Notes under the pieces: model-generated | What the model saw: only the letters and a program-made list of their open reading frames with translations | Databases searched by the model: none | Told to the model about the DNA's origin: nothing | Translations under genes and position numbers: made by a program | Shown: piece by piece, positions 2,119 through 48,592 of the stretch | How the letters are laid out: every line of letters begins with the position of its first letter | How positions within the stretch are numbered: position 1 is the stretch's first letter | Assembly: GCA_020848905.1 (NCBI GenBank) | Contig: JADLHG010000005.1 | Location: 3,423 to 67,422, forward strand | Direction: 5' to 3' | Origin: Deltaproteobacteria bacterium | GTDB taxonomy: Bacteria; Myxococcota_A; Polyangia; GCA-2747355; JADLHG01 | Length of the DNA stretch: 64,000 nucleotides

Positions 2119-3350
2119 CGGCCGCCGGCCTCAAGCAGGTGATCGACGGCGCGCCGCTCGTGGTTTGCGTCGGCCCCGGGGGCGTGGGCAAGACGACGCT
2201 CTCGGCCGTGCTCGCCCTGCACCAGGCGGCCACCGGCGCGCGCTCGCTCGTCCTCACCATCGACCCGGCCCGCCGGCTGGCGGACGCGCTCGACGTGCCC
2301 GGCCTGACCAACGACCCGGTCGCGATCAGCTCCTTCGGCAAGATGCACCCCGGCGGCACGCTCAGCGCGCTGATGCTCGACCCGTCGGCGACCTTCGACC
2401 ATCTGATCGCGCTGCTGGTCGCGGACCCCGACCGGCGACGCGCCCTGCTGGAAAACCGGACCTACCAGTACGTCTCGCGCTACCTCGCCGGAACGCTCGA
2501 ATACATGGCCGTGGAGCGCCTGCACGCGCTGACCCAGGGCGGCGCCTACGACCGGATCGTCCTCGACACGCCGCCCACGAGCAACGCCATCGACTTCCTC
2601 GAGGCCCCGGACCGCCTGGCGACCTTCTTCAGCGACCAGGTGATCAGCCGCTTCATGCCCAAGCAGCAGACCTCGTGGACCTCGCGGCTTCTCAACCGGG
2701 CCAGCTCATCGGTGCTCTCGCTCCTCAACCGCGTCGCCGGAGACACCTTCGTCGAGGACGTCGTCAACTTCGTCTCCACCTTCGGCGACCTCTTCGGCCA
2801 GTTCCGCGAGCGCGGCATCGCGGTGGGCAAGACCCTCCGCGACCCGCGCACGGCCTTCGTCATCGTCTGCGCCCCCGACCAGAACCGGCTCGCCGAGGCG
2901 CGTTCGATCGACGAGCGGCTCCAGCAGGCCGGCTGCCGGGCGCACGCCTTCATCGTCAACCGGGTCGACGCGCCCTTCCTCTCCACCCCCGGGGACGACG
3001 CGCTCGCCCGCGCCACGGTCCTCCTCGGGGGAGCGGCGGAGCGTCCGCGCGTCCAGGCCTTCATCGAGCGCCTCGAGCAGCTGCGACGTAGCTACGACTC
3101 CTCCGCCGCGACGCACGCGCAGGCGGTCGAGTCGCTCCGGGCCTACGCGGCGCCGCGGCCCGTCTTCACGGCCCCCCGCGTCCCCCCCGGCGAGAGCCCT
3201 CGCGCCGCGCTCCTGGCCCTCTACCTCGGCCTCTTCGCCGACACGACCGACACGACCGACGCGACCGCGGCGGGCGCGCCCCCCCCGCTCCCGCCCGACG
3301 ACGGAGCGCGCCGCTCGATTTTCGGTCGCCGTCGAACGGACCGGCCGTGA
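2115..3350 (+). CDS. ArsA/GET3-family P-loop ATPase (second of the split pair)
   Basis: P-loop 'VCVGPGGVGKTTL' and ArsA-like 'DTPPTSNAIDFLEAPDRL'. Start and stop are both coupled by 4-bp overlaps: ATGA with the upstream gene and GTGA with the downstream KAS III. Confidence 0.8.
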   Translation: MTAAGLKQVIDGAPLVVCVGPGGVGKTTLSAVLALHQAATGARSLVLTIDPARRLADALDVPGLTNDPVAISSFGKMHPGGTLSALMLDPSATFDHLIALLVADPDRRRALLENRTYQYVSRYLAGTLEYMAVERLHALTQGGAYDRIVLDTPPTSNAIDFLEAPDRLATFFSDQVISRFMPKQQTSWTSRLLNRASSSVLSLLNRVAGDTFVEDVVNFVSTFGDLFGQFRERGIAVGKTLRDPRTAFVIVCAPDQNRLAEARSIDERLQQAGCRAHAFIVNRVDAPFLSTPGDDALARATVLLGGAAERPRVQAFIERLEQLRRSYDSSAATHAQAVESLRAYAAPRPVFTAPRVPPGESPRAALLALYLGLFADTTDTTDATAAGAPPPLPPDDGARRSIFGRRRTDRP

Positions 3351-4408
3351 CCCTCTCGGCCAAGATCGAGAGCCTCGGCGTCTACCTGCCCGACAAGTCG
3401 CTCACCACCGAGGAGCTCCTCGGCGCCTGCCGGCACCGGCCGCGGCTCGACTTCGAGCGCATCACGGGCATCCACGAGCGCCGGGTCGCCGAGGGCGAGT
3501 ACTCGATCGACCTCGCGGTCAAGGCGGCCCAGCGCGCGCTGAAGATGTCGCGATACTCGGCCGAGGACCTCGACCTCTTGATCTGCACCAGCATCTCGAA
3601 GCACCACCGGCAAGACGAGTTCACCTTCGAACCGGCCACGGCCGTGCTGGTGCGCCGAGCCATCGGGGCCCGCAGAGCCCTCTGCTTCGACGTCGTGAAC
3701 GCCTGCGCCGGCATGCTCAACGGCATCTACGTGCTGCAGGGGATGCTGCGCAGCGGCGCCATCCGCTGCGGCATGGTCGTGAGCGGGGAGCAGAACATGC
3801 CGCTCGCCTGGACGGCCACGCGGGAGATCCGGCACCGCCTCGACCGGCAGCTCGCCTCGCTGTCGCTGGGCGACTGCGGCGCCGCGCTCATCCTCGACGG
3901 TGCGGAGGACGACGCGCGCGGCTTCCGTCACCTGGAGCTGATCACCGGGGCCAAGCACTCGCACTACTGCCACTCGCAGCCCTCGTCGCGCGGCTCCGGC
4001 GGCGTGCTGATCACCAAGGCCATCGGCCTGCAGCGCAAAGGGGCCGAGCACTTCCCCTTCTACTTCAAGGAGGCCGTGCACAAGAGCGGCTGGGGCCTGG
4101 AGGAGCTGGACCACATCATCCCGCACCAGGTCTCGGTGCGCGCCATCCGGCGCGGGATCAAGGAGGTCAGTCGCTTCATGGGCTGCGAGCTGCCCGACCG
4201 CTACCTCTGCTGCGCCGAGAAGTACGGCAACACGACCACCACCAGCCACTTCCTCGTGCTGCACGAGTTCATCCTCCGCGGCCAGATCCAGCCGGGGCAC
4301 AAGCTCCTCTTCGTCAGCGGCGCCTCGGGGATCGTGATCACCCATGCGACCTACGCCATGGACGACCTCCCCGACCGCTATCGCCGCGCGCAGGAAGCGG
4401 AGAGCTAA
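3347..4408 (+). CDS. 3-oxoacyl-ACP synthase III (FabH-like KAS III), catalytically complete
   Basis: Begins 'ESLGVYLPD...', typical of FabH. Catalytic Cys is in 'FDVVNACAGMLNG', His in 'IPHQVS' and Asn in 'YGNTTTTS'. GTG start at 3347 overlaps the upstream stop (GTGA). Confidence 0.85.
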   Translation: MTLSAKIESLGVYLPDKSLTTEELLGACRHRPRLDFERITGIHERRVAEGEYSIDLAVKAAQRALKMSRYSAEDLDLLICTSISKHHRQDEFTFEPATAVLVRRAIGARRALCFDVVNACAGMLNGIYVLQGMLRSGAIRCGMVVSGEQNMPLAWTATREIRHRLDRQLASLSLGDCGAALILDGAEDDARGFRHLELITGAKHSHYCHSQPSSRGSGGVLITKAIGLQRKGAEHFPFYFKEAVHKSGWGLEELDHIIPHQVSVRAIRRGIKEVSRFMGCELPDRYLCCAEKYGNTTTTSHFLVLHEFILRGQIQPGHKLLFVSGASGIVITHATYAMDDLPDRYRRAQEAES

Positions 4409-4409
4409 G

Positions 4410-5291
4410 ATGCTCCGTTGCCGCATGGCCAGCCTCGGGGCGAGCCTGCCGGGGCCCCGCTGGCGCCGCCGGGGCTCCCTCTGGCACGCACAGAAGGCGG
4501 GAAAGGAGTGCCTGGCCCGCTCGCCGTACCGACCCTCCGACGTCGAGGTGCTGATCAACACCGGCGTGAACCGCGACGGCCACACCTGCGAGCCGGCCAT
4601 CGCGACCTACGTGCTCAAGGCCCTGGGCATCAACACCGACTTCCGCGGGAGCCGGACGCTCGGCTTCGACCTGCTCAACGGCGGCTGCGGGATGCTGAAC
4701 GCCGCCCAGGTCCTCGCGACGTTGATGCAGAGCGGCCAGGCCCGGGTCGGGATGGTCGTCTCCAGCGAGGCGAACAGCGACCGCGACCCCGACCCTGCCT
4801 ATCGCTACCCGCCGAGCGGCGCGGCGGTGCTCCTCGACATCGCGCCCCTCTCCGGAACGGGCTTCGGCGCCTTCGCCTTCCGCACCCTCGACGAGCACGC
4901 GGACCTCTACTCCTCGGTGGTCAACATGACCGGGAAGCACGGACGCCTGCTGCTCCGTCGAAAGGACGAGCTCGACGCGGCCTATCGCCAGGGCGCCGCC
5001 GAGGTGGTCGAGGAGGTGCTCTCCCAGGGCCACCTGGCGCGAGATGACCTGGACCTCGTCATCCCCGCCCAGCTCTCGGGGCCCTTCCTCGCCGAGCTCC
5101 CGGCCGCCATCGGCCTGCCGCGCGAGAAGGTGCTCGACCTCTCCAGCGTCCTCGAGGACACCCTGACCACCTCGGTCTTTCTCGCCACGCACCACGCCCT
5201 CGAGACGGGCCGGGCGGGCCCCGGAAAGACCGCCCTGCTCCTGGCCTTCGGCTCCGGCGTGACGGTGGGAGCCGCCACCTACCGCTTCTGA
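4410..5291 (+). CDS. FabH-like (KAS III fold) protein lacking catalytic His/Asn, probable non-catalytic heterodimer partner
   Basis: Thiolase/FabH fold with Cys retained in 'LLNGGCGMLNAAQ'. 'IPAQLSG' replaces the PHQ motif and 'EDTLTTS' replaces GNT. It starts 2 nt after the upstream stop; an alternative start at 4425 is possible. Confidence 0.7.
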   Translation: MLRCRMASLGASLPGPRWRRRGSLWHAQKAGKECLARSPYRPSDVEVLINTGVNRDGHTCEPAIATYVLKALGINTDFRGSRTLGFDLLNGGCGMLNAAQVLATLMQSGQARVGMVVSSEANSDRDPDPAYRYPPSGAAVLLDIAPLSGTGFGAFAFRTLDEHADLYSSVVNMTGKHGRLLLRRKDELDAAYRQGAAEVVEEVLSQGHLARDDLDLVIPAQLSGPFLAELPAAIGLPREKVLDLSSVLEDTLTTSVFLATHHALETGRAGPGKTALLLAFGSGVTVGAATYRF

Positions 5292-5377: not shown

Positions 5378-7519
<2,142 letters not shown>

Positions 7520-7703
7520 GCTCCGAAAAGGAACGCGCACTTCTTCTTTTGAATGGCCACGCGCATCGAGAGTGCGCGCGCGACGTCTCGATCCGCGAGC
7601 CATCTCCCCCGATTCGTGCGAGCGAAGCCGTTGTCACCGCCTGGCATGCTTGGTGCACCTAATCTTCCTGTTCTTGGGCAAGGGGAGTGCGGTGACCTTC
7701 AAC

Positions 7704-7864
7704 CAGAGCGTTGCGTAAGTTCGTTGGCAGTTGATTCGATGATGGTCCTTCCCAAACTCGGAACGCTCGCGTTCCCCCTCCATACCCCGACACTCACTCT
7801 CTATCGAGAGTAAACAACCGGTGCCTCCTCGCCGGAGCTGCCAACGAACTTATGCAGCGCTCTG
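7704..7864. repeat. 27-bp imperfect inverted repeats (25/27 match) flanking about 105 bp, with a nested palindrome, inside a 470-bp AT-richer intergenic region
   Basis: Left arm 7704-7730 'cagagcgttgcgtaagttcgttggcag'. Right arm 7838-7864 is its reverse complement with 2 mismatches. The internal palindrome is 'ggaacgctcgcgttcc'. Confidence 0.7.
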
Positions 7865-7989
7865 CTTCGCAGGGCGCTGCCGCGTCCGGAGGGGTGACCT
7901 CGTCTCGGGGACCCGCTCGCCCGGACCCCCTCCCGCGCAATCCCGATCGGCTATACTGCCTGCCACTTGAGAGACGAAGTGCGCACGCC

Positions 7990-9795
7990 ATGACCACCCG
8001 CAAGACCATCACCCAGCTCCTTCACGACCAGGCCGAGCGCTACGGCGATCGCGTGAGCCACTACCACTGGGAGCGCGGCCAGTGGCGCAGCATGACCTGG
8101 AGGCAGGTGCGCCAGGTCTCGCGCGAGGTGGCCTTCGGGCTCTGGAGCCTGGGCTGCCGCAAGGGGGACAAGGTCGGACTCGTCAGCGAGACCCGCTGGG
8201 AGTGGACCTGCATCGACGGCGGGTGCCTCGGCTTCGGCGCGGTCGTGGTGGGCATCTACCCGACGAGCACCCCCGAGCAGGTGGCCTACATCCTCGCGCA
8301 CAGCGAAGCGAAGGTGGTCTTCGTCGAGAACGCGGCCCAGCTCGCCAAGCTGAACGAGCTCCGCGATCGCTTCCCCGCGCTCCAGGCCGTGGTGGTGATC
8401 GATCCGCCCGACGGCGGCAAGCCCGACGGGTGGTTGACCCTCGAGGGCCTGCGCGAGAAGGGACGCGCGCTGGAAGGACAGGAGCCGGCGCTCCTCGACC
8501 GCGCGCGCGAGGCCGTGCTCCCCGAGGACGTGGCCACGCTGGTCTACACCAGCGGCACGACGGGCCCGCCCAAGGGGGTCGTCTGCACCCATCGCGCCTT
8601 CTTCGACATCGCGGACCTGAGCGTGCGGCACCTCGGCTTCGGCGACGAGGACGTGAGCGTGGTCTTTCTGCCCCTCGCCCACTCGCTCCAGCGCGTCAGC
8701 CTCTACGGCGGGGTGCGCGCGGGGATGACCGGCTACTACGCGCCGAGCCTCGACCGCCTGATGGAGACAGTCCAGGCCGCGCGGCCCACCACCATGGCCA
8801 GCGTGCCGCGCATCTTCGAGAAGGTGCACAGCCGGATCGTGACCGGGCTGGCTCAGCAGCCCGAGCGGCGGCGCAAGCTCTTCACGGCCGCGATGAAGGT
8901 CGGTCGAGCCCGGAGCCGCTGTCTGCAAGAGAGGCGCCCCGTCCCCCTGCACCTGCGCCTCGGCTACGCGCTCTTCGACCGGCTGGTCTTCAGCAAAGTC
9001 CGCGCGCGCCTCTTCGGCCCGCGCCTGCGCTTCCTCGTCTCGGGGGGCGCGCCGATCAGCCGCGAGCTGCTCGAGTTCTTCCACGCCATGGGGATCCTGA
9101 TCCTCGAGGGCTACGGCCTGACCGAGACGAGCGCCCCGGCCACCGTGAATCACCCCGACGACTTCCGCTTCGGGACGGTGGGCAAGGCGCTCAAGGGGGT
9201 GGGGATCAAGATCGCCCCCGACGGGGAGATTCTGATCAACGGTCCCGGACTCTTCCGCGAGTACTACAAGGATCCGGCCGCCACGCGCGAGGCGATCGAC
9301 GAAGAGGGGTGGTTCCACTCGGGCGACATCGGCGAGCTGGACGCCGACGGCTTCTTGCGCATCACCGACCGCAAGAAGGACCTGATCATCACCGCGGCCG
9401 GCAAGAACGTGGCCCCGCAGAACATCGAGAACCTGATCAAGACCGACCGCCACATCAGCCAGGTGATGGTGCACGGCGACCGCCGGAACTACCTCGTAGC
9501 GCTCGTGACCCTCGACGCCGACGAGCTGGCCGCCTGGGCCAAGTCGAACGGCAAGGCCGGGGCGCGCCTCGAGCAGCTCGCAGCAGACCCGGCGGTCCAG
9601 GGACTCGTGGCGAAGATCATCGACGAGAAGAACGCGCAGCTCGCCCGGTACGAGACGGTGAAGAAGTTCCGCGTGCTGGCGGAGGACTTCACCGTCGAGA
9701 ACGGCATGCTCACGCCGACCATGAAGGTCAAGCGCCGGGTGATCGAGAAGAGGTACCGGAGCCTGCTCGACGAAATGTACGGGGAAGGAGGGTAG
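7990..9795 (+). CDS. long-chain fatty-acid--CoA ligase (AMP-binding, FadD-like)
   Basis: AMP-binding motif 'LVYTSGTTGPPKGV' and 'GYGLTETS'. The ATG at 7990 is the first Met after the intergenic region. Confidence 0.85.
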   Translation: MTTRKTITQLLHDQAERYGDRVSHYHWERGQWRSMTWRQVRQVSREVAFGLWSLGCRKGDKVGLVSETRWEWTCIDGGCLGFGAVVVGIYPTSTPEQVAYILAHSEAKVVFVENAAQLAKLNELRDRFPALQAVVVIDPPDGGKPDGWLTLEGLREKGRALEGQEPALLDRAREAVLPEDVATLVYTSGTTGPPKGVVCTHRAFFDIADLSVRHLGFGDEDVSVVFLPLAHSLQRVSLYGGVRAGMTGYYAPSLDRLMETVQAARPTTMASVPRIFEKVHSRIVTGLAQQPERRRKLFTAAMKVGRARSRCLQERRPVPLHLRLGYALFDRLVFSKVRARLFGPRLRFLVSGGAPISRELLEFFHAMGILILEGYGLTETSAPATVNHPDDFRFGTVGKALKGVGIKIAPDGEILINGPGLFREYYKDPAATREAIDEEGWFHSGDIGELDADGFLRITDRKKDLIITAAGKNVAPQNIENLIKTDRHISQVMVHGDRRNYLVALVTLDADELAAWAKSNGKAGARLEQLAADPAVQGLVAKIIDEKNAQLARYETVKKFRVLAEDFTVENGMLTPTMKVKRRVIEKRYRSLLDEMYGEGG

Positions 9796-9798
9796 ACG

Positions 9799-10854
9799 AT
9801 GCTTCACCTGACGACCTTGACCTCGTTCCGGCGGGCCCGGACCCTCGCGGCCCAGCTGCCCCCCTTGGGCGCGCGCTTCGGCGTGCGCGGCTGGGAGCAG
9901 GTCCAGCGGGACCTCGCGACCGTGGTCCGCGGCTGGCTCCACGGCGAGCACTTCCAGTTCGACGTGCGCTCGGCCGGACTCATTCGCCCGGACCTCTCGC
10001 TCCCTACCTACGCCGGCCTGGTGCCCGAAGGGGGGCTCGCGCCGATCTACAACCTCCTCGACCGCACGGGCGGCGCCACGCTCTACACCACCCGCGTCAG
10101 TCGAGGTCGCGCCCGCGACTTCCGCGGCGGTCGCCTCTCGTACGACGACCACCGTGGGACGGACTTCGTGACCCCCGTGGGCATGCCCATCGTGGCGGCG
10201 GCGCCGGGGATCGTGGCGCTCGTGCGCGACCGCTGGCTGCGCGGCGGGCTCACGCTCTCCGTCGACCACGGCCACGGCGTCGTGACGCAGTACTCGCATC
10301 TGTCGCAATCGCTGGTCGAGCTCGGCCAGATCGTGCGCCGCGGCGAGCCCATCGCGCTCGGCGGCGCGTCGGGCTACGACCTCGTGCAGTTCTTCCCCTA
10401 CGTCCCGCCGCACGTGCACTTCATGGTCTGGATGGACGGCCAGCCGGTGGATCCCTTCCTCGCCCCCGGCGAAGCGCCCCGCCCCGGCTGCTGGTGCGAG
10501 GAGAACCGGCCGCTCCCCAGCGGGCCGCTCCCCGACGACCCCCTCCCCGAGGCGAGCCCGGTGGACGAGCTCGCGCTCGAACGCATTACTTCCGCCTGCA
10601 TCGACCCGCTGCTGCGCGAGGAGCTCGCGCAGGCCGCCGCGAGCCCGGTTTCCCTCGCGGCGCTGCTCGAGGACGCGCTGCACCACCAGTTCGAGTCCTG
10701 GCCGCAGGCCTTCTGGCACGAGCGGGTGCGACCGCCGCTCGACCCCGACCGGGCCGCGCGCGCGCTGCGAGTGCGGATCAGCCTGCCGCTACCGTCGAGC
10801 GAGTACACGGGGGCCCGCTTTGCCGACGCCCCCTGGACGGCACCTCCCGCGTGA
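9799..10854 (+). CDS. M23 family metallopeptidase (LytM domain)
   Basis: 'HRGTDF...', 'SVDHGHGVVTQYSHL' and 'PHVHF' fit HxxxD/HxH zinc-ligand motifs. RBS GGAGGG precedes the ATG, which lies 3 nt after the fadD-like stop. Confidence 0.8.
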   Translation: MLHLTTLTSFRRARTLAAQLPPLGARFGVRGWEQVQRDLATVVRGWLHGEHFQFDVRSAGLIRPDLSLPTYAGLVPEGGLAPIYNLLDRTGGATLYTTRVSRGRARDFRGGRLSYDDHRGTDFVTPVGMPIVAAAPGIVALVRDRWLRGGLTLSVDHGHGVVTQYSHLSQSLVELGQIVRRGEPIALGGASGYDLVQFFPYVPPHVHFMVWMDGQPVDPFLAPGEAPRPGCWCEENRPLPSGPLPDDPLPEASPVDELALERITSACIDPLLREELAQAAASPVSLAALLEDALHHQFESWPQAFWHERVRPPLDPDRAARALRVRISLPLPSSEYTGARFADAPWTAPPA

Positions 10855-11474: not shown

Positions 11475-11668
11475 CTGACCTGGCACCCTGCGGACCGGTC
11501 AGCGGAGACGCCACCTCGAGCCCCCCGAGGAGCCGTTTTCAGCACTTGTTGTAAGCAAGATCCATAACTTACACGGCATCTTGGCGTGGCATGGGCAGTG
11601 CAAACGGGAGGCGTCAGTCCGCAGCCGCGCCGGCGCGCACGCGCGCCGACGCCAGGAGGAGGTCGTTC

Positions 11669-12544
11669 ATGAGCCGTCACGCCGTCGCATGCCTCGGGAT
11701 CTCCGCCTGCCTCCTGGCAGGCGCCACGAGCACCGCCTGGGCCGCCGACAGGACTCGCGCCGTAGCGGACGCCCGCGTGGTTCGGGACTACGGCAACATC
11801 CGGCGCTACGTCGGCAAGCTCGGCAGCGGCCGGATGAGCCACGAAGCCAAGCAGCGCTTCCTCGCTACCGTCGAGGTCCTCTACAAGAACCGGGACGGCT
11901 CGTTCAAGGATCGCGACCACGCCCCGACCGTGCGCTTCGCGGGCGGCTCCGGGATCGGCCTGATGGGGATGCTGAAGAAGATCGTCTTCGGCGCACCGAG
12001 CAAGATGGAGATCTCCTCGCACGAGAACCGCGTGCGCGCCGAGGGACCGTTCCCCGCCTTCATCGGCACGGAGCCCCAGATGGCCGCGGTCGACGGAACG
12101 CTCGCGCAGCTCGCCGAGCGCGTGGGTCGCGCGGCCGCTCCGGATCAGCGCTCGCGCATGGGCCTCGTCATCGGCGATGCCCTTCGCGCGGCTCGCGTGA
12201 ACGGTCCTCTCGCCGGGCTGGCGGCCGCCTACGCCACGGCCGCGACGATTCGCTCCACCCAGGACGGCGCCTCCCTCATCGGCGTCATCGAGGTGCAGGA
12301 TGCCGGTCGTCGCGGGGCGCTCGGCGCCGCGATGAAGGTCCTCGAGCGCGAGCATCGCGGCTTCGTGGACCCGAAGGCCGCGCTCACCGTGGTCGAGACG
12401 ACCTGGCTGTGGAAGAACACCGCCATCGGACGGCCCAGCATCGGCACTCAGGACGTGACCCTGAAGGACGGCACCACGCACTCCACCTTCCAGTACTACA
12501 GTGCCGGCGCGGACGGCGCGCTCTTCTGGACGAACGGCCGCTGA
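11669..12544 (+). CDS. secreted hypothetical protein
   Basis: ATG follows AGGAGGA. Signal peptide 'MSRHAVACLGISACLLAGATSTAWAAD'. GC3-rich frame; no family recognised. Confidence 0.55.
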   Translation: MSRHAVACLGISACLLAGATSTAWAADRTRAVADARVVRDYGNIRRYVGKLGSGRMSHEAKQRFLATVEVLYKNRDGSFKDRDHAPTVRFAGGSGIGLMGMLKKIVFGAPSKMEISSHENRVRAEGPFPAFIGTEPQMAAVDGTLAQLAERVGRAAAPDQRSRMGLVIGDALRAARVNGPLAGLAAAYATAATIRSTQDGASLIGVIEVQDAGRRGALGAAMKVLEREHRGFVDPKAALTVVETTWLWKNTAIGRPSIGTQDVTLKDGTTHSTFQYYSAGADGALFWTNGR

Positions 12545-12562: not shown

Positions 12563-13885
12563 TCAGAGCAGGATCAGCTCGATCCCCGAGAACATACCAA
12601 AGACGTGTCCCCCGACGTCGCTCCCCTGCACCGAGCGCGTCACGTACCAGAGCTCCTGTACCGAGAGGTCGAGGTGGAGCCAGCCCGGGATGACCCCCCA
12701 GGGGCGCAGGAAGCTCGCGCGCGCGCCGAGCGCGAAGGTGTGGCGGTCGCAGTCGTAGGTCGGCAGGTCGGTCGATCGGATCGGCGAGCGCTCGAAGGAG
12801 TACCCCGCGCGCCCCGTGAGCCACGAGACGAGCTTGTACTCGGCACCGACGCGCGGGACGAGCATGTCGGTCCAGCGGATCTGCGGCTTGAGCGGGTCGA
12901 GGAGCTTCGCGTTGGGGCCGAGGAAGAGCCGGAGCCCGGGGTCCTTGGCGAGCTGCTCGATGTCGAGCGAGATCTTGGGGTACGGGATCTCGAAGTTGGT
13001 GTAGTCCACCCAGGTCAGATCGGCCGAGACGAGGAGCCGCCGCCCGCGATACGACACCCCGAGGCTGACCTGCTGCGGATGGTACTTCGAACGGATCGTC
13101 GCCTTCGCCTTGACGGGCATGTTGATCTTCGTCGTGTCGGAGACCGAGAGCCGCGTGTACAGATCGAGGGGGAGCTCGACGGAGACGAACTGCGGACCGC
13201 GGTAGGTCGCGCCGATGCGGAAGCGCCCGAGGAAGGCCATCGCCCCGCCGGTGAAGAAGGCGTCGGTCGGCACGTCGGCGTTCATCCAGGCTTCGAGCCG
13301 CAGGTCGGGGTCGGCCGCGCCTCCCCCTCCGCCACCCGGCTGGAAGGGGGCGTAGAAGCTGACCGCGCCGTAGACCGCTCCGGCGAGCTGGAGTCCGGCG
13401 CCGAACGCCAGCCAGCGCAGGGGTCGCCACGGAACGCGGCCCCCGAAACCCACGCGCAGCTGAAAGACCTGCACCGCCGAGTCGTACATCACGAAGTAGG
13501 GCTCGCTCTTCTGATAGAGCCGCGACTCGAAGAGCTTGCCGGTGGGCAGGTTCAGCGAGAAGCCGAAGGCCAGGTACTCCTTGAGTCGGCCCGAGAGGGG
13601 CAAGCCGAGGTGCAGGTAGGTCGAGGTCTCGGTGGGCATCCCGACGCTCGCCCCGTTCTCGACGAGCCGCGGAGCCCCGAGGAGAAAGCCCGCCCCGATG
13701 GTCATCCCCTGGAGCTGCACCAGCCCGGCGGGGTTGTAGTAGAGCGCCGCGACGTCCTCGGCCACGGCGGTGTACGCGCCCCCGAGCCCCATCGAGCGCG
13801 GGTGCATGCCGAAGTGGCTCGCCAGGTCGGCCCGGGCGGTATGGGCCGCGAAGAGCAGCCCCAGAACGACGGGTACACGACGCAC
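12563..13885 (-). CDS. outer-membrane transport protein of the FadL/OMPP1/TodX family
   Basis: Family N-terminal motif 'GLGGAYTAVAEDVAALYYNPAGL'. GTG start at 13885 is preceded by AGGGAGG, and the signal peptide is 'RRVPVVLGLLFAAHTARA'. Confidence 0.8.
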   Translation of the reverse strand: MRRVPVVLGLLFAAHTARADLASHFGMHPRSMGLGGAYTAVAEDVAALYYNPAGLVQLQGMTIGAGFLLGAPRLVENGASVGMPTETSTYLHLGLPLSGRLKEYLAFGFSLNLPTGKLFESRLYQKSEPYFVMYDSAVQVFQLRVGFGGRVPWRPLRWLAFGAGLQLAGAVYGAVSFYAPFQPGGGGGGAADPDLRLEAWMNADVPTDAFFTGGAMAFLGRFRIGATYRGPQFVSVELPLDLYTRLSVSDTTKINMPVKAKATIRSKYHPQQVSLGVSYRGRRLLVSADLTWVDYTNFEIPYPKISLDIEQLAKDPGLRLFLGPNAKLLDPLKPQIRWTDMLVPRVGAEYKLVSWLTGRAGYSFERSPIRSTDLPTYDCDRHTFALGARASFLRPWGVIPGWLHLDLSVQELWYVTRSVQGSDVGGHVFGMFSGIELILL

Positions 13886-13896
13886 GGGAACCTCCC

Positions 13897-14643
13897 TCAC
13901 TTGCCCTTGGCGGGTACGTACTGGACCTCGTCGCTGAGCTCGCTCTGCGTCGCTCGACGAAAGGCCTGTACGGCGAAGTAATAGGTGCGGCCCGGAACCA
14001 GGCCTTGCAGACGAAGTCGCGGGCGCATGGCCGGCGTCGGAGAGGGGACGTCGCCCGCGTCGGTGTAGCTCGGTACCCGATCCAGACACCAGGCCTCGGG
14101 GACCTCGAGCGGCGACGCGGCGGGCATACCGGGCAGTCGCCCCGGCTGCGCAGCGGAGCTGTCCTTCGCTCCCGCATCCCGGGGTGTTCCATCGGAGCGA
14201 GCGTCGCTTGCACCGAGGTCCACGCGGCCATCGCGCGCTCCGCCGTCCTGCGACCGCCCGTCGCGCGACGTGCCGTCTCGGGGTCCCGCGTCGCGCGGGC
14301 CGTCCGGCAGCCGCAGATCGGCCGCGATGGTCGTCGTGGGGCCGATGCTGCCGTCGAAGTCGCCGCAGCCCGTCGGCCACGCTACCCAGGAGAGTCCGCG
14401 CCCCTCGTAGGGGACCCCCGCGCGATCGTCGTCGAAATGCAGCCGATAGCCGTCCACGCGCACCACGAGCTTCCAGGAGAGCTCCACCGTTCCCGGCGCC
14501 GCCCCTACGACCGGCGCCACCACCAGCTCCGTGGGTTTGGGCAAGGGGATCGTCTCGCTGCATCCCGCGATCCCGACGAGCGCGAGCAAGACCGCGCCTC
14601 CGGCTGCCTCGCGAGCTCCCCCGCTTGCTGCGTGTCTTTTCAT
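13897..14643 (-). CDS. hypothetical lipoprotein, co-oriented immediately upstream of the FadL-family gene
   Basis: Signal peptide with lipobox 'LLALVGIAGCS'. The stop is 12 nt before the FadL-family start. Confidence 0.55.
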   Translation of the reverse strand: MKRHAASGGAREAAGGAVLLALVGIAGCSETIPLPKPTELVVAPVVGAAPGTVELSWKLVVRVDGYRLHFDDDRAGVPYEGRGLSWVAWPTGCGDFDGSIGPTTTIAADLRLPDGPRDAGPRDGTSRDGRSQDGGARDGRVDLGASDARSDGTPRDAGAKDSSAAQPGRLPGMPAASPLEVPEAWCLDRVPSYTDAGDVPSPTPAMRPRLRLQGLVPGRTYYFAVQAFRRATQSELSDEVQYVPAKGK

Positions 14644-46549: not shown

Positions 46550-48064
46550 CTACTTAACATGGATCTCGAATTGCTCAAGGTGAAAGTTCTGCTGCGCCTC
46601 CACCTGCAGCGCCTTGCCGTAGCGCCGCTCGAGCACGAGCAGGTGATCCTGCTCGGATTCGGCGAGCAGGTCGGCCACGTCCGGATGCACGCAGACCAGC
46701 ACCCCCTGCCCCGGCAAGGTCGGGGCCTGCCGACGGATCTCGCGCAGGACCTCGTAGCAGACGGTGAGGGCGCTCTTCACGAATCCGCGCCCCTCGCAGT
46801 ACGGACAGGCCTCGGTGAGCTGCCGGCTCAGGCTCTCGCGCACGCGCTTGCGCGTCATCTCCACCAGGCCTAGGGCCGAGATCTCGAGCACGTTGGACTT
46901 CACCCGGTCGGCCTGCAGGGCCTGCTCGAGCGACCGGCCCACCTTCTGGCGGTTGGCCTCCCGGTCCATGTCGATGAAGTCGATCACGATCAGGCCGCCG
47001 ATGTTGCGCAGCCGGAGCTGCGCCACGACCTCCTTCACCGCCTCGAGGTTGGTCTTGGTGATCGTGTCCTCGAGGTTGCGCCGCCCGACGAAGCGCCCGG
47101 TGTTGACGTCGATCGCGGTGAGCGCCTCGCCCTGGTCTATGATCAGGTACCCCCCCGACTTGAGCCACACCTTGCGGTCGATGGCGCGATCCAGCTCGAG
47201 CTCCACCCCGTACGCGTCGAAGAGCGGCTCGTTGCCCTGGTAGAGCTCGAGCGCGGGCAGCCTTTGCGGCAGAAACGCCGAGACGAAGTCCGTCACGCGC
47301 GCGTACTCGCCCTGGTCGTCGATGATCAGCCGCTCGACGGCGTCGGAGAAGAGGTCCCGCACCGCCCGCAGCGAGAGGTCGAGGTCGCTGTAGAGCAAGG
47401 CGGGCGCCTTCGCCCCTTCGGCCCGGCGCTGGGTCTCCTCCCAGAGCTTCACGAGCAGCTCCATGTCGGCGCGCAGGCTCTCCTCGGAAGCTCCCTCGGC
47501 GACCGTCCGGACGATGGCCCCCGTCCCCGGCGGTCGCATCCCCTCGACGAGCTCCTTGAGCCGCCGCCGCTCCGCCTCGCTCGTGATGCGGCGCGAGATG
47601 CCCACGTGGTCCACGGTGGGCATGTAGACCAGGTGCCGCCCCGGCAGCGAGATGTAGCTCGTGACCCGCGCTCCCTTGGTGCCGATCGGCTCCTTGGCCA
47701 CCTGGACGAGCAGCTCCTGCCCTTCGCGCACGCGGTGCTGGATCGGCACCTGCTCGACGACCTCGCGCTCGAGCTCCTCTCCCTCGGGCGCGCTGTCGGA
47801 GCCGACCGACGAGCGTCCCTTGCGCGGCTCGTCCTCGCCACCGGGGGCGTCCCCGGCGTAGAGGAAGGCCGCCTTGCTGAGCCCGATGTCGACGAACGCG
47901 GCCTGCATCCCCGGAAGGACGCGCACCACGCGCCCCTTGTAGACGTTCCCCACGATCCCGCGGTCCCGGCTCCGTTCGACGTAGACCTCCGTGAGGTCCC
48001 CGTTCTCGAGGAGCGCCACGCGCTTCTCGGGCCCGTCGGCGTTGATGAGGAGGAGGCAGCTCAT
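46550..48064 (-). CDS. rng: ribonuclease G/E family endoribonuclease
   Basis: S1 domain 'GNVYKGRVVRVLPGMQAAFVDIG', the DNase I-like core and the Zn-link 'CPYCEGRG'. Confidence 0.85.
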   Translation of the reverse strand: MSCLLLINADGPEKRVALLENGDLTEVYVERSRDRGIVGNVYKGRVVRVLPGMQAAFVDIGLSKAAFLYAGDAPGGEDEPRKGRSSVGSDSAPEGEELEREVVEQVPIQHRVREGQELLVQVAKEPIGTKGARVTSYISLPGRHLVYMPTVDHVGISRRITSEAERRRLKELVEGMRPPGTGAIVRTVAEGASEESLRADMELLVKLWEETQRRAEGAKAPALLYSDLDLSLRAVRDLFSDAVERLIIDDQGEYARVTDFVSAFLPQRLPALELYQGNEPLFDAYGVELELDRAIDRKVWLKSGGYLIIDQGEALTAIDVNTGRFVGRRNLEDTITKTNLEAVKEVVAQLRLRNIGGLIVIDFIDMDREANRQKVGRSLEQALQADRVKSNVLEISALGLVEMTRKRVRESLSRQLTEACPYCEGRGFVKSALTVCYEVLREIRRQAPTLPGQGVLVCVHPDVADLLAESEQDHLLVLERRYGKALQVEAQQNFHLEQFEIHVK

Positions 48065-48553
48065 GGTGCGTGTGGCCTGTCGGTTCGGCGGCGCAGGGGC
48101 TCTGCTGGAGGAGACGGGCTCCCCGCCGCAGAGGTACTCCGTCGGCGGCGAGACGTCTACGACCTTTCGCGCAGGGCGCCCGGTGGGAACGCAGGGGGGG
48201 CGCGCCAGCGCGTCACACAACGCAATACAGTGTTAATTCAACACTATAAACAGTAATCCGCGTCCTCTCCGGGCCTCACCCGACCCCGGGTGGCTGACAC
48301 GGATGTCGCGCTCCGGCCGGCCCCGACCTGCCCCCTCGCCGGCGTTAGTTTTTTAACTGTGGGGACTTAGCGAACCGGCGCCCCTGTGGCACATCCGTTG
48401 CTAATTTGTTGCCCCGTCAACACGGTACGGTACGCTCCCTTACGACCCATACTGAGCGACCGGCCGTGTCCGTGGGACGGGTTGACGGCTTAGACTTTGG
48501 ATAGACTAGCTTTTTCTTAGACTTCTCGCTTAGCTAAATCTTCAGGTGTTGGT

Positions 48554-48592
48554 GAACCCCCCAGGACAAGAGCCGGGGGGTTCCGCTTTTTT
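48554..48592 (+). terminator. strong intrinsic terminator-like hairpin (9-bp G/C stem gaacccccc/ggggggttc, then a T-tract)
   Basis: 'gaaccccccaggacaagagccggggggttccgctttttt' sits at the 3' end of an ORF-free AT-richer region of 550 bp. Confidence 0.5.

Follow-up and report, generated by a model that had tools for sequence, protein, structure and literature searches.

Sigma-54 control is pervasive in Myxococcota, and to our knowledge few RNA regulators have been described in this phylum. Correia elements of Neisseria and ERIC elements of enterobacteria are MITE-like repeats that are co-transcribed with neighbouring genes and cut as hairpins, and flgB of Clostridioides difficile has an invertible switch within a long 5' UTR. 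A near-perfect stem of 29 pairs is unusual in riboswitches and sRNAs and typical of inverted repeats that act at the level of DNA, such as terminal repeats and recombinase sites. For the sRNA Pxr of Myxococcus xanthus, transcription seems to depend on a sigma-54 promoter; Pxr is about 108 nt long, consists of three consecutive stem-loops and a terminator and is located beside the enhancer-binding regulator nla19 (PMC5568312).

Here we analysed an intergenic element in a 64-kb stretch of DNA from a Deltaproteobacteria bacterium (the window). Like Pxr, it belongs to Myxococcota, is intergenic and lineage-restricted, has a predicted sigma-54 promoter upstream and is predicted to form an RNA with multiple stem-loops. 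Judged from its sequence, a 210-nt block around a long inverted repeat probably functions as a structured RNA whose family has not been described.

The spacer and its inverted repeat

The GC content of the window is about 70%. A first-pass annotation of this DNA had reported a 470-bp non-coding and GC-poorer spacer at 7520-7989. This was borne out, with a GC fraction of 0.58-0.62 in the region (7500-7899) versus 0.68-0.75 in the flanking genes. The features of the locus are collected in Table 1. For comparison we used the only related genome fragment found (L081; ENA sample ERZ27258500), which has the same gene order and 95.2% identity over 11.3 kb.

Table 1. Features of the spacer region and its flanking genes, with differences from L081 where applicable
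Feature	Position	Strand	Remark
DUF255/Thioredox_DsbH gene	5378-7519	+	upstream neighbour of the spacer
Probable intrinsic terminator of the DUF255 gene	7496-7550	+	predicted from fold and sequence
Two similar motifs, 21 bp apart	7589-7624		CGATCCGCGAGCC (7589-7601) and CGATTCGTGCGAGCG (7610-7624); read from sequence
Sigma-54-type -24/-12 motif	7642-7657	+	TGGCATGCTTGGTGCA (GG-N10-GC); predicted transcription start near 7668
Block under strong constraint	7689-7898	+	1/210 differences (G7738A)
5' arm of the long stem	7701-7730	+	0/30 changes
Hairpin 1 in the loop	7760-7775	+	GGAACG-CUCG-CGUUCC; predicted fold
Hairpin 2 in the loop	7796-7811	+	ACUCUC-UAUC-GAGAGU; predicted fold
Hairpin 3 in the loop	7818-7835	+	CCGGUG-CCUCCU-CGCCGG; predicted fold
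3' arm of the long stem	7838-7867	+	0/30 changes
Alternative 12-bp hairpin, loop UUC	7854-7880	+	7854-7865 with 7869-7880; 12 pairs, one G-U
GGAGGGG	7888-7894	+	complementary to CCCCUCC of the multiloop (7775-7781); read from sequence
Unconstrained, hypervariable linker	7899-7925		17/27 positions differ, plus a 12-nt indel; both sides conserved
Conserved stretch before the ligase start (translation initiation region)	7926-7989	+	2/64 changes; TATACT at 7952-7957
Long-chain-fatty-acid-CoA ligase gene (AMP-binding)	7990-9795	+	downstream neighbour of the spacer
M23 peptidase gene	9799-10854		after the ligase gene

The same annotation had described the genes of this genome as tightly packed. This holds for the first 11 kb with gaps of -65 to +86 bp, while spacers of about 190-400 bp occur elsewhere in the window. 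The spacer 7520-7989 is the largest clean spacer of the window, not the sole one. A Pfam scan of about 35 window genes showed them to be of the housekeeping type (LigA, IspDF, XseA, MetK, AhcY, aconitase, RNase E/G). There was no transposase, recombinase, reverse transcriptase or sigma-54 activator (Sigma54_activat) among them.

The open reading frames of the spacer all have a GC3 of 0.47-0.73, compared to 0.93-0.95 in real genes. Because these values are far below those of real genes, none of the reading frames is credible. Two of them, 7553-7813 (+) and 7794-8012 (-), had been explained as mirror images produced by the repeat, and indeed they read the two arms as the mirror peptides ERCVSSLAV and ERCISSLAA. 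A small protein from a 24-codon reading frame at 7739-7813 was rejected: it lacks a ribosome-binding site, has a GC3 of 0.64 and is constrained at all three codon positions.

The start codon of the ligase is ATG 7990, not 7991. The ligase protein has the same sequence as MCC6746616.1, encoded in a Deltaproteobacteria bacterium MAG, and its next-closest homologues are proteins of Myxococcales or Myxococcota MAGs with 61-64% identity. A second ATG, at 7852, lies within the 3' arm and shares the reading frame of the ligase, with no stop codon before 7990, and this frame survives the 12-nt indel seen in L081. An N-terminal extension of the ligase from this codon was discarded, as its GC3 is only 0.67 and the homologues begin at 7990. 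Thus ATG 7852 (7852-7989, +) is a trap for gene callers, not a real extension. At another ligase locus (L083, 6001-6530) the 778-aa call for the homologue P0003 seems to be N-terminally over-extended by about 175 codons. A true start near 6518 is suggested because the homologues have about 600 aa and a lipoprotein-like reading frame is located on the opposite strand of this stretch.

The DUF255 gene probably ends in an intrinsic terminator, where GGUGCGCG (7496-7503) would pair with CGCGCACU (7534-7541), enclosing a small hairpin and followed by UCUUCUUUU. This structure suggests that U-tract terminators are in use in the genome. Because it would part the upstream gene from the spacer, a spacer transcript probably begins anew near the start predicted from the sigma-54-type motif.

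The inverted repeat 7704-7730 / 7838-7864 was confirmed with 25 of 27 matching positions, and a repeat search lengthened both arms to 30 nt with 27/30 matches (90%). The distance between the arms is 107 nt and not about 105, as given before. The nested palindrome reported as perfect, GGAACGC-TC-GCGTTCC, does have arms of 7+7 nt, but its 2-nt centre is non-palindromic, so it is nearly but not strictly perfect. With no gaps and no more than two mismatches allowed, the longest inverted repeat of the spacer measured 27 nt; in 100 dinucleotide shuffles of the spacer this length averaged 12.9 nt and reached 16 nt at most. The repeat is the strongest of the 64-kb window, and no other comes near. Thus it is real and far above chance. 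Two further candidates were dismissed: an outer inverted repeat at 7535-7557 / 7962-7984 (78%) was judged to be at chance level, and a palindrome at 7565-7571 / 7586-7592, considered as a conserved site, is degraded in L081.

Conservation and the sigma-54-type motif

Between the window and L081, 308 of 3064 third codon positions in seven genes are changed (10.05%), as are 49 of 422 positions in other intergenic DNA (11.6%). Against this background the near-identity of the 210-nt block corresponds to a binomial P of 5e-9 and a Fisher P of 2e-8, in an alignment of uneven conservation, where 4.4% of the 211-nt windows in the mostly coding 11 kb have two or fewer differences. The contrast with the adjoining non-coding DNA is sharp on both sides. 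Because the block equals first and second codon positions in its degree of conservation, we conclude that it is functional, which is our strongest result.

The conserved block exceeds the repeat arms by 12 nt at the 5' side and 31 nt at the 3' side, where it takes in 7869-7880 and GGAGGGG. Between the hypervariable linker and the ligase start conservation returns. No sigma-70-type promoter passed the scan ahead of the ligase. That the predicted loops are almost completely conserved is more than structure alone accounts for, and argues against an RNA reading. A direct repeat GGTGACC is present at 7691-7697 and 7893-7899, i.e. at both borders of the block; a 7-mer repeat of this kind is expected by chance in a region of such size.

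The sigma-54-type motif is located 45 nt upstream of the inverted repeat and points into the element. The pattern TGGCAYN6TGCW has four matches in the window, all on the + strand, versus 0.14 expected. Two of the other three matches lie in spacers at sensible positions, and we take the one inside a tRNA synthetase gene as chance. The motif departs once per half from TGGCAC-N5-TTGCW, which we take to be the consensus. In particular, its -12 element reads GTGC instead of TTGC, which counts against a promoter. On the other hand, positions 7640-7660 carry 0/21 changes versus L081, while changes flank the motif upstream (7632, 7636, 7639) and downstream (7661, 7662, 7666). Just upstream of the motif there is a conserved island with one difference in 7589-7631 against seven in 7540-7588. 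The motif pair located there may be an activator-binding site. Enhancer-binding activators are often unlinked to their promoters.

Another sigma-54-type motif at 11587-11602 (+) is found 68 nt upstream of a gene at 11669-12544 (+). This gene has a strong ribosome-binding site, AGGAGGAGG, and its protein has no Pfam match and an N-terminus that looks like a signal peptide. The next gene, 12563-14563 (-), codes for a FadL/TodX-family outer-membrane fatty-acid transporter. FabH-like genes at 3347-5291, the ligase and the FadL/TodX gene give the neighbourhood a lipid theme.

A further motif, TGGCACATCCGTTGCT at 48387-48402 (+), resides in an AT-richer spacer of 394 bp between two minus-strand genes. 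About 150 nt past it a clean U-tract terminator, AACCCCCC...GGGGGGTT CCGCTTTTTT, is located at about 48555-48592. The region 48387-48592 (+) is a candidate sRNA of about 180 nt, for which Rfam yielded no match. It is located immediately upstream of the RNase E/G gene (46550-48220, -) and points away from it, and would therefore be antisense to any long RNase E/G leader.

Predicted fold and distribution

Both arm mismatches appear as U-G and G-U on the + strand and as A-C and C-A on the - strand. Because both are G-U pairs there, an RNA of the + strand forms an unbroken stem of 29 pairs, while the stem of the - strand has two internal mismatches. Folding, which had been proposed as a check in the first-pass annotation, gave -82.7 kcal/mol with z = -8.5 for the + strand and z = -6.2 for the - strand. 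The 107-nt interior folded alone had a z of -2.0 on the + strand and -1.15 on the - strand; on the + strand it is C-rich and G-poor with 37% C and 20% G. The chance of two random substitutions both giving G-U on one named strand was estimated at about 0.06-0.11. The mismatch pattern is only suggestive of a + strand RNA.

Within the loop three hairpins of six pairs are predicted. The loop of hairpin 3, CCUCCU, would correspond to an anti-Shine-Dalgarno sequence. The alternative hairpin is built from the outer half of the 3' arm and for this reason cannot coexist with the 11 outermost pairs of that stem; folding of 7845-7930 yielded -47.7 kcal/mol and z = -3.7. No U tract follows this hairpin (CGCGUCCGGAGG comes next), and a terminator scan found none between the element and the ligase. 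In addition, GGAGGGG may pair with CCCCUCC as a pseudoknot at the 3' edge of the conserved block.

The search of Rfam suggested by the earlier annotation lent no support: at up to E = 10, Rfam 15 produced only five weak matches in 7300-8200, all to unrelated families, and the best of these scored 14-22 bits versus gathering thresholds of 34-83. At gathering score there was no match in the whole window. A second copy of the element was absent from the 64-kb window in searches with 16-mers allowing three mismatches, with word-7 blastn and with a covariance model built from the window and L081 copies. A multi-copy repeat had been considered as well, yet no second copy was present in the DNA searched, i.e. 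the window, L081, 31+2 loci and metagenome, viral, plasmid and phage DNA.

Seven ligase orthologue loci (61-64% identity) possess neither the sigma-54 motif nor the element; the ligase gene there either overlaps its upstream neighbour or is separated from it by up to about 190 nt. At two of the seven the ligase is immediately preceded by a ThiF-like gene, and one of these two keeps the pair of ligase and M23 peptidase. Because the element is missing at these loci, it is not an ancient regulator of the ligase gene. It was likewise absent by blastn or nhmmer from 80 more distant ligase loci (at most 49% identity) on reference genome contigs, and the two-copy covariance model detected nothing on 19 of these. 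Recurrence across lineages with covariation, by which riboswitches and conserved cis-regulatory leaders are recognized, was thus not observed upstream of these 87 orthologues.

A search of JGI metagenome contigs for the two-arm pattern resulted in a single match, L084 (61% GC), which is unrelated and shares only 13-mers. This contig contains two adjacent long palindromic units at 2247-2336 and 2381-2509 with common motifs such as GGGATCCTTCGAC, which resemble a repeat family belonging to that organism; the 13-mer GTTCGTTGGCAG(C) arms recur in one of the units by coincidence. Viral contigs gave 55 single 15-mer matches and no paired arms, therefore these are chance only. In plasmids and phages blastn found no copy. 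No target-site duplication abutted the arms: the adjoining sequences read GACCTTC and CGCAGGG, and the two copies of GGTGACC are separated from the arms by 3 nt and 25 nt.

The two known copies are 99.5% identical, and therefore covariation is absent and the structure is supported by thermodynamics and the two G-U pairs. Of the grounds that the first-pass annotation had named for giving up its proposal, a single copy and a lack of covariation formally apply, but only because the comparison covered no more than two near-identical genomes.

Several known element types were compared with the locus and rejected. A retron msr-msd does not fit, with an AMP-binding ligase as the downstream gene and no reverse transcriptase among the scanned genes. 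A Tn3-type 38-bp end (GGGG...TAAG) fits on the left side only and is unmatched on the right. The outer flanks considered as an IS66-type GTAAG end are inverted, not direct, repeats.

Readings of the element and known systems

The first-pass annotation had offered a mobile remnant, a structured RNA or a two-site operator. Of these options the structured RNA gained support from the G-U pairs and the z-score of the + strand, the conserved promoter-type motif and the strong constraint. A + strand RNA is indicated by the G-U pairs, the fold, the composition and the promoter-like motif in combination. Thus we tentatively favor, as the most plausible single reading, a structured RNA that is confined to this lineage and made from a sigma-54 promoter, most likely the 5' leader of the ligase operon. 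Observed directly are the inverted repeat, its folding energies, the enriched promoter-like motif, the sequence constraint and the lack of coding potential; transcription itself, the two ends of the transcript and any regulatory effect are inferred.

In such a leader transcription would start near 7668 from the sigma-54-type promoter, and the element would be the core of about 320 nt preceding the coding region on the mRNA of ligase and M23 peptidase. The 29-pair stem with its two G-U pairs would close a C-rich, G-poor multiloop carrying the three hairpins, one of which would present CCUCCU in its loop. A duplex as long and regular as 29 pairs is a natural substrate of RNase III, and RNase III could cut it here. 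If the outer half of the 3' arm paired with 7869-7880 instead, two mutually exclusive conformations would result, and these could determine how the ligase message is processed, how stable it is or whether read-through occurs. The unpaired C-rich segments would be free to bind protein, Rho or Shine-Dalgarno-like sequences. A more elaborate version appears highly improbable, namely that the element is the sensing domain of a new riboregulator, in which a leader made under sigma-54 control exchanges its 29-pair stem for the alternative hairpin, or the reverse, in response to a ligand or protein linked to fatty acids or acyl-CoA and so controls the ligase. We know of no lipid-related riboswitch.

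We consider it unlikely that the element is instead a stand-alone, trans-acting sRNA of about 210-230 nt, extending from about 7668 to about 7900, driven by the sigma-54 promoter and ended by processing or Rho. Here the C-rich loops (CCUCCU and CCCCUCC) would pair with the Shine-Dalgarno regions of targets and the ligase would have its own promoter in 7926-7989. The evidence from promoter, strand and constraint is common to both readings. The constraint ends abruptly at 7898 and is followed by the unconstrained linker and a second conserved stretch with TATACT, which speaks for an sRNA with a separate ligase promoter, and the C-rich, G-poor interior is in keeping with target pairing. Moreover, the window contains another likely sigma-54-driven non-coding transcript, the one at 48387-48592, and Pxr is a precedent for a sigma-54-dependent sRNA in Myxococcota (PMC5568312). 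Yet the 3' hairpin of the element has no U tract, whereas the candidate at 48387-48592 and the DUF255 gene have clear U-tract terminators. The scan passed no sigma-70-type promoter for the ligase, and a perfect stem of 29 pairs is atypical of trans-acting sRNAs. Because the element has no terminator behind it in a genome where U-tract terminators are used elsewhere, we prefer the leader to the stand-alone sRNA.

Because a near-perfect long repeat and a conserved 'loop' sequence also fit DNA sites, readings at the DNA level have to be weighed against the RNA leader. One of them is a MITE-like palindromic repeat, either still spreading or domesticated, that has inserted between promoter and ligase, measures about 167 bp and ends in inverted repeats of 27-30 bp. 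Size and arm length would agree with this, and terminal inverted repeats are present (30-nt arms, 27 matching). Such an origin would also suit the confinement to one lineage, the lack of a comparable spacer at ligase orthologues elsewhere and the 7-nt direct repeat GGTGACC at the edges of the conserved block, and recent spread could equally explain the near-identity of the two copies. We nevertheless regard it as quite improbable. No second copy was found in the window, L081, JGI metagenome contigs, viral contigs, plasmids and phages, no direct repeat abuts the arms and no transposase is encoded among the scanned window genes. Both genomes have the element at the same site and therefore it predates their split; one change in 210 positions versus a neutral divergence of 10% is not expected of an unselected, decaying remnant. 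Conservation also runs 12 nt and 31 nt past the arms. Thus the mobile remnant of the first-pass annotation gained nothing. An invertible DNA switch, in which a recombinase flips the 107-bp segment so that the leader allows or blocks ligase expression depending on orientation, would be consistent with near-identical inverted repeats around a short leader segment between promoter and gene. The conservation of arms and interior at the sequence level fits a DNA site, and the interior, C-rich on one strand, could act as an orientation-dependent Rho site. This reading is very doubtful, since both assemblies have the same orientation and no recombinase gene is present among the scanned window genes; G-U-compatible mismatches and conservation past the arms are not predicted by it. 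Finally, two operator sites 137 bp apart, start to start, at which a regulator loops the DNA downstream of the promoter, would account for two near-identical, inverted 27-bp sites conserved in both genomes. Yet the 107 nt between the sites are as strongly conserved as the sites, there is no adjacent regulator gene, 27-bp sites without an internal dyad are unusual and the strand-specific G-U pattern would be unexplained. Nothing specific spoke for this part of the earlier proposal and we consider it extremely unlikely.

If transcribed as proposed, the leader would add an undescribed structured RNA to Myxococcota and tie sigma-54 control to a gene of fatty-acid activation. One difference in 210 positions against 10% at neutral sites is a concrete ground to treat the block as functional and not as junk. 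The practical value is limited for now, with an uncultured organism and only two near-identical copies.

With respect to the systems mentioned at the outset, the element differs from Pxr by its length of about 210 nt, its 29-pair closing stem and the absence of a terminator, of a nearby regulator gene and of an Rfam match. With Correia and ERIC repeats it has in common the unit size (about 150 bp), the length of the inverted ends (about 26-30 bp), the position between promoter and gene and a long RNA duplex that would suit RNase III. Those repeats, however, occur in tens to hundreds of copies with defined target duplications, while here we have one known copy, no duplication at the arms and strong constraint. 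Invertons such as the flgB switch likewise have imperfect inverted repeats of about 20-30 bp around a segment of about 100-150 bp, a long leader and a promoter upstream; here no recombinase was found among the scanned window genes, both assemblies have a single orientation and the phylum is another one. The CCUCCU loop and additional unpaired CCUCC/CCCC segments are reminiscent of the CcsR or 'cuckoo' RNAs of alpha-proteobacteria and of RsaE/RoxS of Firmicutes, which differ in being short hairpin arrays with terminators. The RNase III-controlled leaders of E. coli pnp and rnc have no sequence relation to the element and no counterpart to its three-hairpin multiloop with C-rich linkers, yet they resemble the proposed ligase leader in that a long, near-perfect duplex is located in the 5' leader of an mRNA.
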